The notes under the pieces were generated by a model. The model had not been told where the DNA came from. It saw only the letters and a list, made by a program, of their open reading frames with translations, and ran no database searches. Both the position numbers and the translations under genes were made by a program. Below, piece by piece: positions 9,895 to 30,061 of a stretch of DNA of 54,798 nt (its first letter is position 1; every line of letters starts with the position of its first letter). Source of the stretch: Candidatus Eiseniibacteriota bacterium (GTDB lineage Bacteria > Eisenbacteria > RBG-16-71-46 > JABDJR01 > JAWXBZ01); assembly GCA_034440375.1 (NCBI GenBank), contig JAWXBZ010000034.1, positions 1 to 54,798 on the forward strand, read 5' to 3'.

Positions 9895-9923
9895 AGTATA
9901 TGAGTCAACGAGCCTCGCGTCAA
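9895..9923 (-). promoter_or_regulatory. sigma70-type promoter for the ptsN operon
   Basis: TTGACG-N17-TATACT; the -35 contains the TGA stop of the upstream GT4; the GTG start is 9 nt downstream. Confidence 0.75.
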
Positions 9924-11101: not shown

Positions 11102-12174
11102 GACAGCGTCTCGTCGTACACCGCGATGGTGCCGGCGATCATCCGCTCCCGCGTGAGTCGTTCCAGGAAGCGGGCGCGCGCGGCCGCGGCCAACCGGTCC
11201 CGCGTCTTCGCGTCGACGGCTAATTCGATCAACGCGCCGGTCCAGGCGGCCTCATCCTCTGGTGGGACAAGTCGCCCAACCGAGTCGTCCACGATCTCGT
11301 CCAGGCCGGGAAGATTCGAGACCACCGGCACCGCCCCGGCTGCCATCGCCTCGGCCACGACAAAGGGAAGCCCCTCGATCAGGGAGGGAACGGCCACGAC
11401 ATGCGCAGCAGCGATCTCCAGTGCCGCCGAATCGAGAGCGCCGGTCATCCGGACGCGGCCGGCCAGCACTCCTTCCTTGGCCTTCTGGGCCAGCAATTCC
11501 CGGTCAGGTCCCTCACCAACAATGACAATCTCCATGTCCACGCCGCTGGCGATGGCGGCAGCGGCGGCGCGAAGCAACACGACCTGCCCCTTTCGCGGTT
11601 CCAAACTCCCCACCACGACCACCCGAAACGGTAGGGGTGGCCTCAAGGTCGGCGTTCCAGGGTCTTCCACACCGTTGTAGACCACGCGGATACGATCACC
11701 CCTGACCCCGTGGCGTGAGGCAAGCAACCCGGCATGAGCCTTCGAGATGGTGATGGTCCGATCGATGAGACCGCCCCACAATCGTTTCTGAGCCACCCGA
11801 CGTCGCGAGGGGGCGATGTCGGCAATGTGCTCGGTGGCCACAACGGCACGTCCCGGTCGCGCCATGAGGCGCGCCCACCCCCCGCATCCCATTTCATACG
11901 GGCTTGGCATGTTCATGTGGACAAGGCGAGGATTGATCCGGTCAATCGCCCGGGCCAGTTCAAAGGCGCCGAGAACTCCGCGCCGGCGACGCCATCGAAC
12001 GGTTTCAACGCCGGCAGTGGCCAGATGACCGGCGAGGTCGTCAAGCAGCGCCCGATCCGGAAGGAGGACGACCGGTCGCCATCGTCGTCGGTCGAGCCCC
12101 GCACCGAGCCGCAGAAGGTAGCGCTCCGCTCCCCCTTCGTAGCGGGCGTCGGAGACGAGGGCAATCGGGATCAC
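11098..12174 (-). CDS. Glycosyltransferase family 4
   Basis: GGAERY, VVYNGV, GSLEPRKG and EGLPFVVAEAMAAG (EX7E). Confidence 0.9.
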   Translation of the reverse strand: MIPIALVSDARYEGGAERYLLRLGAGLDRRRWRPVVLLPDRALLDDLAGHLATAGVETVRWRRRRGVLGAFELARAIDRINPRLVHMNMPSPYEMGCGGWARLMARPGRAVVATEHIADIAPSRRRVAQKRLWGGLIDRTITISKAHAGLLASRHGVRGDRIRVVYNGVEDPGTPTLRPPLPFRVVVVGSLEPRKGQVVLLRAAAAAIASGVDMEIVIVGEGPDRELLAQKAKEGVLAGRVRMTGALDSAALEIAAAHVVAVPSLIEGLPFVVAEAMAAGAVPVVSNLPGLDEIVDDSVGRLVPPEDEAAWTGALIELAVDAKTRDRLAAAARARFLERLTRERMIAGTIAVYDETLS

Positions 12175-13040: not shown

Positions 13041-13085
13041 AAAAAAAGGAGCGTTCCAACCGACTCAGCGTTGGACGGCAGCTCC
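13041..13085 (-). terminator. Intrinsic terminator-like hairpin within the 5' leader of the priming transferase
   Basis: GGAGC..TCCAAC-loop-GTTGGA..GCTCC followed by T7 on the minus strand. Confidence 0.65.
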
Positions 13086-13360
13086 CCTGCTTGTCGCCAG
13101 CATTCGAACCGTTCCCATGGTGATCGGCCGGAGGGTATCACTCTCCAGTTGTCCGTCACCCGACTTACTCAAAATCCCGACCGGGCGGACTGAACTCATG
13201 GCCGCGCGGATCCGGGGTCGCATTGGCACCGTTGCAATCGGGATCGATGACTTCAGATACCTTCTGGGATTCGAAGGTGGTCATTCGGTATTCATCATCT
13301 TATAAAGTGGTCGCTAGATGCTCCTCCGTAAGTTGATGAGGCTCTTGTGATTGGGAAGTG

Positions 13361-13390
13361 AGAGTATCACGCGTCATGAAATGACGTCAA
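13361..13390 (-). promoter_or_regulatory. sigma70-type promoter with a palindromic operator in its spacer
   Basis: TTGACG-N18-TACTCT with extended TG; perfect inverted repeat CGTCAT-N3-ATGACG at 13372-13386; the -35 contains the upstream TGA stop. Confidence 0.6.
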
Positions 13391-18326: not shown

Positions 18327-20863
18327 TCGACGGTCATCCAACCGACCTCGGGCCCTTCATGTCGATCCTCATCGGAGAATAGATCGGCCAGGGTGAGGAC
18401 CGGGTAAAGGCCCACCTCGTCCAATGACAGCTCCAATCGATATCTCCCTGTGATAATCTGCTGTGGGACAATGACTTGAAGGCTATCCAGCAACCATATG
18501 CCCGCAGGGCAATCCTCCGGCGAGCAAAGACCACAAAATGGCATTTCGACACCACGGGCCCGGAGGCTTCCTCCCAGGCGTGGCTCGTCCAACAACCTTC
18601 GATGGAGCTTCGAGAATGGCCCGGGCGCGCCCAGCCGATCAACATCCTCGTGTTCGAATCGGAGATGGGCCTCGAATTCCCGGTAGTCGACGGGCCACAC
18701 CCGTCTTCCTCCCAAGTCTCCGAACCGCCACGAGGCTGGCAATATCATCGGCTCTCCCCGCTTGACCCGGAGGTTGGACGGAAGGGATTCTACGGCAAGC
18801 TCCGCCCCTGGAGTGCTGACGTGGACGGCGTCCTTGTCTGGGGCAACACCCGGCGTCAAACCGCGCGAACCAAAGGCCGGCCCCGTGCGCCGCCCGGCCC
18901 CGAGGCGATAAATTCGAAAGTCCCCGACCACGGCGACCGAGTCCATCCAGCCTGGGAGTGGCTGGAAACGGGCAGCCAGGGCGTGATTATTCCGCGGATC
19001 GCGATGGGCTCCGAATTCATCGATCCGCCGCGGGCTGATTGGATTGATGACCAGCCAGCCGGCTCCCTCCTTGATGCAGCCAGCAAGTGCCTCCTCGATC
19101 GGTACGCAGGTCGAGAGCAGCGCGGCTGCCACCCGGAGCCGTTCAAGGGCCCGGGAATCACCCGGGGGAGCATGCTGATGCAGCGTCACCATGACCCGAC
19201 GCCCTGTCATCGCCGGGATCGCATAGCTGGTGATGGGATCGGAAGCGATCACGGCGTCGAGAGGCAGCAACCGATCGATGGCAAGTGCAACACCGGGCGG
19301 TAATGACTCGGGCCCCACCTCACCCGTCCTGGTGAGTCGGTCCAGACCTGATCGGAACGATGATGCCCCCACCAGCAGCATGATGGCGATTACGCCACCC
19401 GCCGCGAGCCGGGCCCACCTTCGACTTCCGGATTGAATTACTGCCGTTGCCAGCAGGACGAATGCCAGTGCCGGTGACCAGACCAGCGCGAGCTTGTTTG
19501 CCACGGAACCGAGCTCGCGTCCAACCGGGGCCAGGAGCCAGGGGTTGAACAGCAGCGATGCCGGCACAAGAACCGTCGCAGCCAGGTATCGATGCGACCG
19601 ACGGTGATCAATCAGTACGAAGAGAAGTGCCAGCGGGAGCGCCAGCAGCCCCGCCAGACCGAACCAGCCGATCAGCTGGATCGGTGAGGCGATCGGTCCC
19701 GGGCCCAGTTGCAGCCAGGCCATCGACTGACCATGGAGCGGATTGTCGCTGGCGGCACTCAGAAAGAGACGCGCCGCCTCGACTGGTAACGCCCCGAGAC
19801 AGAAAGCGCCGAGACCGACCGTGGATGGGATCGCCGGGCCGACCGTACCCTGGGGCCCATTCCTGTCGCCCGGGAAAACCATGAACAGCCGGTAGCCAAG
19901 CAGTGGCGCAATGACCTGGACGGGCGCGTACGCATGAACCGCCGCTGCCGCCGCGCCGGCCAGGAGGGCCCACCGCGCACCCCACCCGGCAAGGAAACCG
20001 GCGATGATGGCCCAGGCGAGTGCCAGGCCGGCATGGCCTCCATAGGCGGACTTGAAAATCCAGGTCGGATCGCCGGCCAGGAACAGGAGCGCGGGCAGCG
20101 CCATCCAGACGCCCGGCCCGAAACCATTGGTCAGGGCCATGACCAGGGACAGGAACGCCGCCATCGAGAGGGGCGCCAACAGTGTTGACGATGCCTCCCA
20201 GACAATGGATGGATCAACACGGGCCACGACCGCGGCGCTCGCCAGCGCGAGGTGGGTCACACCCTTCCGTATATCAAGTCCTTCCGATTCCCCTGGCCCG
20301 TAAAACGCCCCGGGGAACTCGACCCGATCCGATTCGACGAGGTGACGAATGGTGGCCAGGTGATCGAGCGCATCGTCGAATGGGCCGAGCGGCGTGCCGA
20401 TGCGGAGCGCCATCAGAAGCGTCAGGATCAAGGCCGCTACAATCGCTGCCCGGCGATTGCCCTGCCCCGAAGCCCCCCCCCCGGATGCCAACGGTTTTGC
20501 GGCGGCACCGGACACTCGTGACGAAACGGCCGACACGGCCGCCGTCACGACGACGAGCAGGACACTGAGGATTGATAGCGGCACGCCCGCGAACCCGAGA
20601 CTCATCAGCAGGAGATGCGGCAGTGGGATCAGCACGGCGCCAACCGCCACGGCAAGGATCAGGCCGGCCGCCGGATTTCGTGTGGCGGATGCCGGCCATG
20701 CGAAACGGCGGAGAAGCGGCCATGCGGCCAACGGCAGGCCAAGAAAACTCGCGATCAGCCCGAGACAAGCCGCCGCTCGATCCGGAATCGGTGCCTGCGC
20801 GAGGAGCACGGCCACCGGACCGAGCCACGGAAGAAGCCGACCAGGGGTCATCAAAGATCTCAA
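18323..20863 (-). CDS. Large polytopic membrane protein, GT-C-like (multi-TM N-part plus periplasmic C-domain)
   Basis: More than 10 hydrophobic segments, acidic loop DDALDHLATIR, and a soluble C-terminal part with VIASDPITSYAIPAMTGR. Family assignment is inferred. Confidence 0.6.
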   Translation of the reverse strand: MRSLMTPGRLLPWLGPVAVLLAQAPIPDRAAACLGLIASFLGLPLAAWPLLRRFAWPASATRNPAAGLILAVAVGAVLIPLPHLLLMSLGFAGVPLSILSVLLVVVTAAVSAVSSRVSGAAAKPLASGGGASGQGNRRAAIVAALILTLLMALRIGTPLGPFDDALDHLATIRHLVESDRVEFPGAFYGPGESEGLDIRKGVTHLALASAAVVARVDPSIVWEASSTLLAPLSMAAFLSLVMALTNGFGPGVWMALPALLFLAGDPTWIFKSAYGGHAGLALAWAIIAGFLAGWGARWALLAGAAAAAVHAYAPVQVIAPLLGYRLFMVFPGDRNGPQGTVGPAIPSTVGLGAFCLGALPVEAARLFLSAASDNPLHGQSMAWLQLGPGPIASPIQLIGWFGLAGLLALPLALLFVLIDHRRSHRYLAATVLVPASLLFNPWLLAPVGRELGSVANKLALVWSPALAFVLLATAVIQSGSRRWARLAAGGVIAIMLLVGASSFRSGLDRLTRTGEVGPESLPPGVALAIDRLLPLDAVIASDPITSYAIPAMTGRRVMVTLHQHAPPGDSRALERLRVAAALLSTCVPIEEALAGCIKEGAGWLVINPISPRRIDEFGAHRDPRNNHALAARFQPLPGWMDSVAVVGDFRIYRLGAGRRTGPAFGSRGLTPGVAPDKDAVHVSTPGAELAVESLPSNLRVKRGEPMILPASWRFGDLGGRRVWPVDYREFEAHLRFEHEDVDRLGAPGPFSKLHRRLLDEPRLGGSLRARGVEMPFCGLCSPEDCPAGIWLLDSLQVIVPQQIITGRYRLELSLDEVGLYPVLTLADLFSDEDRHEGPEVGWMTVE

Positions 20864-27953: not shown

Positions 27954-28811
27954 TCAGTTGGCCCCTCGTGGTCCGGCATTCGAGCCGGCACTGGGAATCT
28001 CGCTGGGTCGAATCTCGCGGTTATAGACGAGGTCCGTGTTGAAGGCCTCCCAGCCGCGCAAATAGAAGATCGGAAGCGCCACCATCTTGCCAAAGATATC
28101 GTTCACGACGGTGACCAGCTTTCCAATGAACGTCCTCGGCACAAAAATGATGTCATAGTCCTGCAGGTACAGGTCGCTCGACATTGGCCGTCCCTCGGTG
28201 AAGCGAAGCAGATCGAATCGCCTGGCCATGGCCTGATTCCGGGCCATCCGCCGAACGAGAACCGCATGGCGCAAGTCGGCGAATTCGGTGGGCCCCCCCG
28301 CTTCGGCCAGTGCTCCCGCCACCGTCATTCCGGGACGGATGTCGACCGCCTTGGGATACTTGACATCTCCCAGGATGTACACCTTGGGCTTGGCAAACTC
28401 CTTCAGGTTGATCGAAAGTTGAGGGTTGGTGTAATAGCGGCTGTAGGCCGTTCGCACGGTATCGGCGAGCTGACCGGGAGTCGTGCCGGCCACCATGATG
28501 TCACCCAGTATTGGCAGATTGATGGCACCATCGGGACGTACGATGATCTCGTCATCCAGATCGTGATCGAAAAGGAAAACCATCCGAATGGTGTCGCCCG
28601 GGCCCAGGCGGTAACTGGGATCGACATAAACCGAATCGGAGGGGCCAAATGTGACGCTCTCGTCCGACGGGTCCATCAACGTCACATCGCCGGCGAGGTT
28701 GCCGCTACCCGCGCAGCCAGCCAGGCTGGCCAGCAGCAGAAACTGCAGCAAAATCGGCCCGATCCACAGGAATTCGGCGGGCCCCTTCAATCTCGAGCGT
28801 CCTCTCATCAT
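27954..28811 (-). CDS. wza: OPX/Wza polysaccharide export lipoprotein
   Basis: Lipobox LAGC, YRLGPGD, VRPDGAINLPILG, SLBB domain (VYILGDV..P, AEAGG), C-terminal amphipathic helix. Confidence 0.9.
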   Translation of the reverse strand: MMRGRSRLKGPAEFLWIGPILLQFLLLASLAGCAGSGNLAGDVTLMDPSDESVTFGPSDSVYVDPSYRLGPGDTIRMVFLFDHDLDDEIIVRPDGAINLPILGDIMVAGTTPGQLADTVRTAYSRYYTNPQLSINLKEFAKPKVYILGDVKYPKAVDIRPGMTVAGALAEAGGPTEFADLRHAVLVRRMARNQAMARRFDLLRFTEGRPMSSDLYLQDYDIIFVPRTFIGKLVTVVNDIFGKMVALPIFYLRGWEAFNTDLVYNREIRPSEIPSAGSNAGPRGAN

Positions 28812-28857
28812 CCTCCCGTTATCGGACGGACCGGCCACTGGTTGAGCCGGAACCCCC

Positions 28858-28891
28858 AAACAAAAAGCCGACCCCGCACAGCGAGGTCGGC
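28858..28891 (-). terminator. Intrinsic terminator ~50 nt upstream of the wza start
   Basis: 11-bp stem GCCGACCTCGC-TGT-GCGGGGTCGGC followed by TTTTTGTTT. Confidence 0.8.
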
Positions 28892-29066
28892 CGATCATTG
28901 ATGATCCACCGGAGACTGCTGCCAAGGGCTGTACTGAAAGACACGGGCAACATAAATGTTAACCCGTTGTCATCATTTGAGTTGAACGATCGATTGTATC
29001 AGCTCAGACCCGTTAGCCAGTCTCGATCCGGTACTCCTGAAGGTGCTGTTGACCACACTTCTTGAA
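28858..29066 (-). ncRNA. Candidate ~210-nt structured RNA (6S-like rod or attenuator leader)
   Basis: Bounded by a consensus promoter and a terminator; nested long-range pairing from 29032 to 28908 with an internal bubble. Confidence 0.55.
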
Positions 29067-29072
29067 CGACTA

Positions 29073-29102
29073 ATTATAGCAACGGCCCCTTCGGGGCGTC
29101 AA
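29073..29102 (-). promoter_or_regulatory. Near-consensus sigma70 promoter
   Basis: TTGACG-N18-TATAAT with extended TG; the -35 contains the upstream TGA stop. Confidence 0.8.
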
Positions 29103-30061
29103 ACAGGGACTTTGGGGTCGCGCTCCAATGCCCGGAGGACGCCCGCCACGAAGAGCGGTATGAGTATCTCATGGTGCCCGGTGAGGGAGTAGCCATGCCC
29201 CCGCCCGCCCGCCGTCGGACGGCGAACGACATTCTGGGTCGGCCGATAGTGGCGGAGAAAGTCAAAGTCGGCCGTCACCAGGTCGATCACCGTTTCACCC
29301 AGGTTCAGGTGGATCGAAAGAACCTTGAGGAACACCTCCGGCAGGACAACCGCCGATCCCAGGTTAAGCACCACGCCACCCGCGAGTGGCCGGATCGCCT
29401 CGGCCAGAATGCGGAAGTCGCGCAGGCTCGTCGCGCCGATGGCCGCGCCGTCGGCGGAGGGATGCTGGTGCAGAATGTCGGTGCCGATGGCCACGTGAAC
29501 GGTGAGCGGCACCCCGCGCCGCCAGGCACCCGCGAGGAGACTTCGATCGGCGTGCGGGGCACCGGATTCAACAAGGTGTCGGCCAAGTGCCTCTCCAAGT
29601 CCTTCGCCGCGGTCGGCGGCTTCACGCGTCACTCCGTTCATCCGGGCAACGGTCTCGTCGGCCATGCCGAAGGTGCCGCCGGCCAGTTCCGCCTCCACAT
29701 CCTCGGACGTGGCGCCATACACGGCCATTTCGAAATCGTGGATGGCGGCCGCCCCGTTGACGGCCACGGCGCGAAGGTGACCCCGCTCGAGAAGCTGAAG
29801 GAGCGGTACCACGCAACCGGTCTTGATGACGTGTCCGCCGGCCATGACCAGGATCGGTCGCCGGGCCCGCGCCGCCCGGGCCGTGGCGGCAATCACCGAC
29901 CTCAAGTCGGCCGCCCCCAGGATGTCCGGCAATTTATCGAGGATTGCTCCGTCGGCGGCTTCCAGCGGGGCGCCTGATCGCGCGAGATCGACTCGTGTTT
30001 CGCGCTCGCGGGCGGGACGAGTCGAAAGCTGGGTCAGGTCAATTTCCGGATAGCGGGACAT
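29099..30061 (-). CDS. Conserved hypothetical protein with deoxyhypusine-synthase-like motifs
   Basis: GGHVIKTG, NGAAAIHDFE, TVHVAIGTDILH, NLGSAVVLPEVFLK, GHHEILIPL; ATG overlaps the upstream TGA. Confidence 0.75.
   Translation of the reverse strand: MSRYPEIDLTQLSTRPARERETRVDLARSGAPLEAADGAILDKLPDILGAADLRSVIAATARAARARRPILVMAGGHVIKTGCVVPLLQLLERGHLRAVAVNGAAAIHDFEMAVYGATSEDVEAELAGGTFGMADETVARMNGVTREAADRGEGLGEALGRHLVESGAPHADRSLLAGAWRRGVPLTVHVAIGTDILHQHPSADGAAIGATSLRDFRILAEAIRPLAGGVVLNLGSAVVLPEVFLKVLSIHLNLGETVIDLVTADFDFLRHYRPTQNVVRRPTAGGRGHGYSLTGHHEILIPLFVAGVLRALERDPKVPV

Follow-up and report, generated by a model that had tools for sequence, protein, structure and literature searches.

The window analysed here is a stretch of 54,798 nucleotides (54.8 kb) from Candidatus Eiseniibacteriota bacterium (contig JAWXBZ010000034.1), and our subject is a structured RNA of about 205 nt, counted from its inferred start to the end of its terminator, that lies at the head of a polysaccharide gene cluster. 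Promoter, structured RNA, intrinsic terminator, Shine-Dalgarno sequence and a wza-like gene follow one another on the same strand within 290 nt, as listed in Table 1; coordinates are read on the minus strand, and all folds are computed minimum-free-energy (MFE) and centroid predictions. The wza-like gene (hereafter wza) is the first of a same-strand cluster of roughly 19 kb, reaching about position 9920, in which it is followed by genes for a Wzz-like protein, a ParA-like kinase, a flippase, Wzy, a GT2 protein, a radical SAM protein, a priming sugar transferase (Bac_transf) and two GT4 proteins. Upstream of the RNA, again on the same strand, are rimP, nusA, infB, truB, ribF, pnp, an M16 peptidase gene, dut, a gene for a DUF3108 protein and a gene for a protein of 320 amino acids (aa), whose stop codon (29099) adjoins the −35 element of the promoter. 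An initial annotation, made from the sequence alone, had called the RNA ‘unannotated’, which is right with respect to Rfam 15.

Table 1. Position and make-up of the features at the wza locus of the window.
Feature	Position	Strand	Description
320-aa gene, function unassigned, synteny anchor	29099..30061	minus	true start M80 of 399-aa frame (31-sequence alignment)
Sigma-70-type promoter	29073..29102	minus	−35 TTGACG 29102-29097, 18-nt spacer, TG 29081-29080, −10 TATAAT 29078-29073
5′ hairpin, 33 nt	29034..29066	minus	UUC-AA-GAAG-U-GUG / CAC-CUUC-AG-GAG; MFE and centroid folds
Rod, 127 nt	28907..29033	minus	interrupted closing stem of ~27 bp around a predicted three-way junction
Unpaired 5′ junction strand, 8 nt (UACAAUCG region)	28991..28998	minus	opposite strand 2 nt, 28939-28938
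Weak A/U-rich arm P3	28972..28990	minus	AUCGUU / AAUGAU, 6 bp, 7-nt loop, predicted
Apical arm P4	28940..28971	minus	GACA-ACGGG-U-UAAC / GUUG-CCCGU-GUC, 13 pairs, loop AUUUAU region
Short hairpin, 14 nt	28893..28906	minus	GAUCA-UCAA-UGAUC; directly abuts the terminator
Intrinsic terminator	28857..28892	minus	12-bp stem, 9 G-C, loop UGU (28892-28866), then UUUUUGUUU (28865-28857)
wza-like gene and Shine-Dalgarno	27954..28817	minus	Poly_export 1.1e-19, SLBB 2.6e-13 (Pfam)

The promoter that the initial annotation had read as TTGACG-N18-TATAAT is present, matches the sigma-70 consensus at 11/12 positions and carries a TG two bases upstream of the −10. It is the top site in the 20 kb between 9300 and 29200, where the runner-up matches at 10/12 positions and six sigma-70-like sites were observed, as against 3.3 ± 1.9 in shuffles. 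Transcription would start near 29066. The claim that wza has no other obvious promoter was borne out: no further sigma-70-like site was found on this strand between 30500 and 27500, and a search with the sigma-54 pattern found none near the RNA and none between the terminator and wza. Since no other site of either type was found, every transcript reaching wza must cross the terminator. A terminator with a U-run had indeed been described here, but with a stem of 11 bp where 12 pairs are counted; taken alone, its hairpin is predicted at −22.6 kcal/mol. From the end of the U-run it is about 47–50 nt to the first in-frame wza starts (ATG 28811 and ATG 28808, with a further TTG at 28790; stop at 27954), close to the ~50 nt given before. 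The Shine-Dalgarno sequence is GGGAGG (28817–28812), and −10 and start codon are 262 nt apart.

The predicted fold of this RNA opens with the 5′ hairpin, which holds a GGAG in its 3′ foot (29034–29066), and continues into the rod, whose closing stem consists of the segments ACCGG, GAGACUG, GCUAA, GGG, CUG and GCUGA, each with its partner. All of the pairings proposed earlier (ACCGG/CCGGU, GAGACUG/CAGUCUC, GCUAA/UUGGC, GGG/CCC, CUG/CAG, GCUGA/UCAGU and the apical hairpin) recur in the MFE fold. The rod had also been said to contain a one-sided A/U-rich bubble. One-sided it is, the 3′ strand being only 2 nt long, but on the 5′ side, which comprises 8 nt and a 19-nt hairpin, 28990–28972 is predicted to fold into a hairpin of 6 bp, so that the shape becomes a stem closing a three-way junction. 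Within the junction strand the UAC of CUGAUAC is unpaired with a probability of 0.92–1.00.

For the full 218 nt the folding energy is −87 kcal/mol (z −5.79), and for the rod alone (29033–28907) it is −50.1 kcal/mol (z −4.98), with 0/200 dinucleotide shuffles as stable in the first case and 0/200 shuffles in the second; a separate shuffle set for the RNA gave z −5.14, and the rod centroid is nearly identical to its MFE fold. By these predictions the fold is far beyond chance, the structure being argued from thermodynamics alone. The G+C content of the RNA segment is 51%, compared with 59–70% in the flanking genes. Neither of two short motifs stood out in it: UCAA occurs in five copies in 28858–29066, three of them in predicted loops, a count that is not significant (some 4-mer is equally frequent in 24% of shuffles), and GGA motifs of the CsrA type number three in 209 nt, by eye about what chance would give.

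The slot between the 320-aa gene and wza is occupied in related genomes also. Relatives of the 320-aa protein run to thousands, some of those in metagenome-derived sets being 79–98% identical, and in a scan of genome contigs with this protein 80 loci (1.39 Mb) out of at least 600 stretches were kept, the best members being Candidatus Eisenbacteria assemblies with up to 57% identity among the matches listed. The stretch downstream of the 320-aa gene was read in 17/80 loci. Twelve of these (L001, L003, L004, L005, L006, L007, L009, L010, L011, L022, L041 and L065), from assemblies labelled Candidatus Eisenbacteria or else unclassified or probably mis-binned, have a TTGAC(A/G/T)-N17–18-TAnnnT promoter and, behind it on the same strand, a structured leader built on a common core; as in the window, both lie between the 320-aa gene and the gene that follows. 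The latter encodes Poly_export and SLBB domains in 11/11 loci tested (L011 left out), and its start codon lies about 230–270 nt from the −10 in 10 loci and 334–337 nt from it in two.

The relatives' leader (for example, L001 11036–11288) consists, in order, of a 5′ hairpin, GGCGGAGG, a stem 5′ strand CCGAGACGC (CCAGGCGC in three loci), unpaired CUUGCUACUGC, two hairpin arms, a stem 3′ strand GCGUCCGG or GCGCCUGG, further hairpins and then the Shine-Dalgarno sequence of the next gene. Conservation lies in the unpaired stretches GGCGGAGG and CUUGCUACUGC, the two arms being variable. A stem enclosing at least two hairpin arms is found in 12/12 relatives and in the window. In the relatives' stem, P2, 91.7% of 84 cells are paired, compared with 18–43% in slid controls; in three sequences one A-U pair is replaced by G-C, and the covariation score of 0.154 (versus 0.097 ± 0.021) was reached by 3/500 shuffles. 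Covariation support for P2 is nonetheless modest, because 3/7 pairs are invariant and the structure was derived from the same sequences. A hairpin with a U-run precedes wza in 5/12 leaders (L005, L009, L010, L022 and L065), and 7/12 are without a U-run terminator and continue straight into the Shine-Dalgarno sequence, indicating that in those seven lineages leader and wza share one transcript. Rfam 15 has no entry that matches the motif (9/12 loci searched at gathering score, five at E ≤ 10), and this Eisenbacteria wza leader, apparently a conserved RNA, is a candidate new motif outside that collection. The TTG in its CUUGCUAC was considered as the start of a leader peptide and rejected, as by eye the frame it opens has 35 codons in L001 and just 8 in L003.

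Taken together with the surroundings of wza, these loci incline us to read the window RNA as a cis-acting 5′ leader, a promoter-proximal transcription checkpoint of the wza polysaccharide operon. This reading fits best because transcripts reaching wza pass the terminator and because 12 related loci hold a promoter and leader in the same slot. An antitermination leader was one of three readings offered by the initial annotation; of the other two, a 6S RNA fails the computational tests applied to it and a discrete new small RNA (sRNA) stays in play as a rival, weighed below. In the scheme we propose, the near-consensus sigma-70 promoter, recognised by its sequence, would fire, and the nascent RNA would fold into the 5′ hairpin, the stable stem with its three-way junction, the short hairpin and the strong terminator. 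Polymerase would then stop by default near 28860, releasing the ~205-nt RNA and leaving the ~19-kb operon silent. Read-through, the weakest step of the scheme, would be brought about by something that recognises the rod or the junction and acts on polymerase or terminator, whether this is a protein or the transcript working on its own polymerase; ribosomes could thereafter load at GGGAGG, 47 nt further on. Read-through driven by a factor or by the RNA is favoured because no competing antiterminator helix of comparable strength was found.

A number of results weigh against this reading, beginning with those on descent. Three covariance models were used, R1 comprising seven of the relatives' leaders, R2 all 12 and R3 the window rod alone. 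R1 recovered relatives outside the model (L041 at 37.9 bits, L011 at 24.6 bits and, with filters off, L022 at 10.1 bits), but with filters off across 28000–30000 nothing on the window RNA scored above −2.2 bits with R1 or −1.4 bits with R2. Searches of the 80 loci (1.39 Mb) with the window RNA by blastn (word size 7) and nhmmer gave a best E of 0.26, and R3, run over those loci and the window, found only itself and one 11.2-bit match at E 9.8. Local alignments of the window leader with L001, L003, L009, L022 and L008 were no better than those of shuffles (z 0.1 to 1.5). Among the sequences searched, then, the window RNA is an orphan. Moreover, only 7/12 relatives' leaders fold with z ≤ −2, the remaining five lying between −0.4 and −1.6, and in L008, a complete Eiseniibacteriota chromosome, wza stands a few bases behind its promoter with no long leader.

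The proposed mechanism meets further difficulties. Forcing the rod 5′ strand to be unpaired left the terminator intact in constrained folding, and in a duplex scan the best pairing with the terminator 5′ arm reached −14.3 kcal/mol versus −22.6 for the terminator, although predictions of mutually exclusive folds by these two methods miss many real cases. An extension of the short hairpin, GGUGGAUCAU/AUGAUCGGCC, was considered as an antiterminator and set aside, since by eye it would take only 4/12 terminator pairs. A Pfam scan of 46 window frames revealed no NusG paralog, KOW, ANTAR or similar domain. No ops-like 12-mer (allowing up to two mismatches) was present on the minus strand of 28812–29102, and window-wide 52 were counted where 54.7 are expected. 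Finally, the operon shows no excess of terminator-like sites (17 versus 14.3 ± 3.9), so that processive antitermination is not demanded.

Because none of blastn, nhmmer, R1, R2 and R3 gave a match, what links the window RNA to the relatives' leaders is position and topology only. Both occupy the slot behind the 320-aa gene and its promoter and before wza, on the same strand and in the same length class; both begin with a 5′ hairpin, and both have a stem enclosing two arms. In the relatives' alignments the window RNA shares only GGAG, CCGG..GAGAC and UGGCUAAC or CUGAUAC. Three likenesses found by eye, which carry no statistical weight, are a GGAG 35–50 nt from the −10, a 5′ strand with CCG..GAGAC and a 3′ strand with GUC(U)CCGG (GUCUCCGG). 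Against these stand a much longer closing stem and lower G+C in the window RNA, the absence from it of GGCGGAGG and CUUGCUACUGC, and the lack of the sigma-54-like site that precedes most of the relatives' leaders. Judged by sequence (R1, R2 and pairwise alignments), membership of the window RNA in the relatives' leader family is rejected; judged by where it lies, its strand, its length class and its topology, it does belong there.

The alternative that survives best, though we judge it unlikely, is a stand-alone trans-acting sRNA gene (other than 6S) between two operons, the terminator of which also ends the upstream transcript that runs from pnp to the 320-aa gene, with wza expressed by leak-through or from a promoter of unrecognised type. 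With a promoter close to consensus and a terminator that is strong and independent in structure, a discrete RNA of ~205 nt would be expected, the G+C of the segment is low relative to its flanks, and neither constrained folding nor the duplex scan found an antiterminator. Terminated leaders can, moreover, act in trans too. This alternative would, however, leave wza without a promoter, there being no sigma-70-like or sigma-54-like site between it and the terminator, and in 7/12 related loci the RNA in this slot has no U-run terminator and continues into the Shine-Dalgarno sequence of wza.

A metabolite riboswitch, in which the three-way junction binds a small ligand and so sets the efficiency of termination, we regard as distinctly improbable. 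The order of promoter, junction-containing fold, terminator and Shine-Dalgarno sequence would suit one, as would the relatives' conserved core with its unpaired GGCGGAGG and CUUGCUACUGC and a 3′ end that varies (terminator in 5/12, none in 7/12) in the manner usual for riboswitch families. In L022 and L065, moreover, constrained folding shows that opening P2 lets its 3′ strand pair with the terminator region, and because of this alternative pairing a riboswitch-like mechanism is possible for the relatives' motif. The window RNA, however, lacks the relatives' conserved loops and yielded no mutually exclusive fold, and known riboswitch aptamer models in Rfam gave no match, either across the whole window at gathering score or in 28700–29250 at E ≤ 10. 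At −50 kcal/mol its rod is unlikely to need a ligand in order to form and would hardly be ligand-dependent; a simple two-state metabolite switch is, on these computed folds, the less likely arrangement for the window RNA.

Less probable again, to the point of being very unlikely, is that the RNA has no regulatory role and is a stable 5′ structure protecting the mRNA or a chance palindrome beside a terminator. The five thermodynamically ordinary leaders among the relatives would accord with this. It sits poorly with a rod that alone reaches a z of about −5 and with a structured leader filling the slot in 12 related loci, and unless control is involved it is difficult to account for a terminator of 12 bp that separates a promoter from the only gene downstream of it. 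Least credible of all, and ruled out as the leading reading by the Rfam searches at gathering score and at E ≤ 10, none of which gave a 6S match, is a divergent 6S RNA, that is, a mimic of the open promoter that sequesters sigma-70 holoenzyme and templates product RNAs.

If the cis-acting leader reading is correct, the RNA would serve as the master checkpoint for the making of capsule or exopolysaccharide in an uncultured lineage about which little is known, and one outside the curated RNA families; its very stable and easily synthesised fold would also make it a tractable object for studying the way in which a nascent RNA, or a partner of it, overrides a terminator. Were it a plain sRNA or a passive structure instead, the finding would be an ordinary one. 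A larger proposal, which we offer as speculation and which, taken whole, we think doubtful, is that the rod and junction represent a new class of cis-acting antitermination RNA, either the docking site of a factor or an RNA acting on the transcribing polymerase, as EAR (eps-associated RNA) and put do, and gating, in an uncultured lineage close to Candidatus Eisenbacteria, an exopolysaccharide operon of 19 kb; the relatives' leader motif, syntenic though dissimilar in appearance and absent from Rfam, would then be a sister class, and the two together would show that leader RNAs are quickly replaced in a regulatory slot that itself stays fixed. Literature matches for Eisenbacteria noncoding RNA amounted to one on a soil coassembly, judged by its title, and among the matches listed for processive antitermination, exopolysaccharide and RNA elements nothing concerned this lineage.

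Several observations were made on neighbouring features. In 10/12 related loci a sigma-54-like GGCAY-N5-TTGC lies just after the 320-aa gene (L001 10954–10967, L003 1889–1902, L004 9458–9471, L005 3540–3553, L006 11235–11248, L007 11114–11127, L009 9330–9343, L010 11083–11096, L022 10956–10969 and L065 7087–7100); as it sits 50–240 nt upstream of the sigma-70-like promoter, the two promoters stand in tandem there. A second sigma-54-like site is found about 1.85 kb upstream in nine related loci. The window itself encodes a sigma-54 activator (710–2191), though the window RNA has no such site nearby. On the L008 chromosome, 8 kb further on than wza, R2 weakly matches a stretch at 19272–19430 (GCGGAGG ... 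UUGCUACUGC; 18.7 bits, E 0.4), with TTGACG-N17-TACCTT upstream of it and a Bac_transf gene (19563–20282) downstream. In L075, labelled Gemmatimonadota, AUCUUGCUACGAG occurs at 11180–11215, downstream of the 320-aa gene homolog, with no match to R1 or R2.

The family of the 320-aa protein is very large (8000 scored matches, all at E ≤ 0.001), its alignment contains numerous invariant H, D, E and G positions, and the only Pfam match of the 320-aa protein is a weak one to ArgZ-like_C (8.4e-05, below cut-off). Judged by its sequence, it is a conserved enzyme-like protein beside polysaccharide export genes in this lineage. Within the polysaccharide cluster, a second unit of the same layout is found on the minus strand at 13041–13390. 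It comprises a promoter-like TTGACG-16-GATACT (13390–13363, 9/12), about 320 nt without a convincing open reading frame and a hairpin GGGGAGC...GCUCC with U7 (13087–13041), followed by the priming sugar transferase gene, whose real start is probably ATG 13003 or 12955, not 13159. As a second copy of the wza leader this stretch upstream of Bac_transf was rejected, having no model match, a fold z of −0.9 and no similarity to that leader. At the end of the cluster, a promoter-like TTGACG-17-TATACT (10/12; 9895–9923, minus strand) lies directly upstream of a PTS EIIA-2 gene (9885–9415).

Among known RNAs, 6S RNA resembles the window RNA in outline: a rod of two imperfect helical arms around an unpaired stretch, a total length of about 200 nt (about 205 nt in the window) and a strong promoter. 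In the account drawn on here, 6S RNAs are ~200-nt rods with a closing stem made from both RNA ends, and their −10-like recognition element is located in the 3′ strand of the central bubble (PMC8876501). In the predicted fold the window RNA departs from this at its ‘bubble’, which has almost no 3′ strand and folds into a hairpin on the 5′ side; nor do the ends of the full-length RNA make the closing stem, three extra structures (the 33-nt 5′ hairpin, the 14-nt hairpin and the terminator) lying outside the rod, but these could be removed by processing. Rfam 15 gave no 6S match across the whole 54.8-kb window at gathering score; at E ≤ 10 none appeared in the 551 nt of 28700–29250, which hold the RNA (three unrelated weak matches, to mir-4766 and two snoRNA families, were all that came up there), or in five related loci. 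The genomic context is different too, since no zapA or cyclo-ligase gene was seen among the Pfam-scanned frames of the window, an absence of the usual 6S neighbourhood that the initial annotation had noted in putting 6S forward on account of the shape and of a putative short likeness in sequence. The window RNA is probably not a 6S RNA.

Parallels also lie with leaders of long biosynthetic operons. Leader RNAs gating long polysaccharide operons are, to our knowledge, known from a few systems only (ops/RfaH, EAR and LoaP). In RfaH/ops (JUMPStart) systems a long untranslated leader precedes capsule, lipopolysaccharide (LPS) or exopolysaccharide (EPS) operons, as one precedes the polysaccharide operon here, and the relatives' GGCGGAGG looks similar to ops over the latter's first five bases. 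Long, costly polysaccharide or polyketide operons gated by leaders that bear terminators are described for LoaP at dfn (PMC12691694) and for EAR in eps of Bacillus subtilis (PMC7858274). The dfn and mln operons of Bacillus velezensis, where LoaP, a NusG paralog, brings about antitermination, are there said to combine a constitutive promoter, an unusually long leader with a hairpin determinant and a NusA-dependent intrinsic terminator, and a very long biosynthetic operon (PMC12691694). Like them, the window has a long biosynthetic operon whose 5′ leader contains an intrinsic terminator. It differs in phylum, has no sequence relation to them and encodes no NusG paralog among its 46 Pfam-scanned frames; and whereas the LoaP hairpin, as that source presents it, has a UNCG tetraloop, the loops of the window RNA (the apical AUUUAU region, UCAA and UGU) include none. 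EAR, a structured cis-acting RNA inside the exopolysaccharide operon, confers terminator read-through by itself (PMC7858274); the window RNA differs from EAR as portrayed there in standing at the operon head with its own terminator 15 nt behind it, in matching no Rfam family and in preceding an operon that is not enriched in terminators. What is new at the wza locus is the sequence and fold, which fall in no described family and are absent from Rfam 15, and what is known is the type of device, a terminator-containing leader of a polysaccharide operon.

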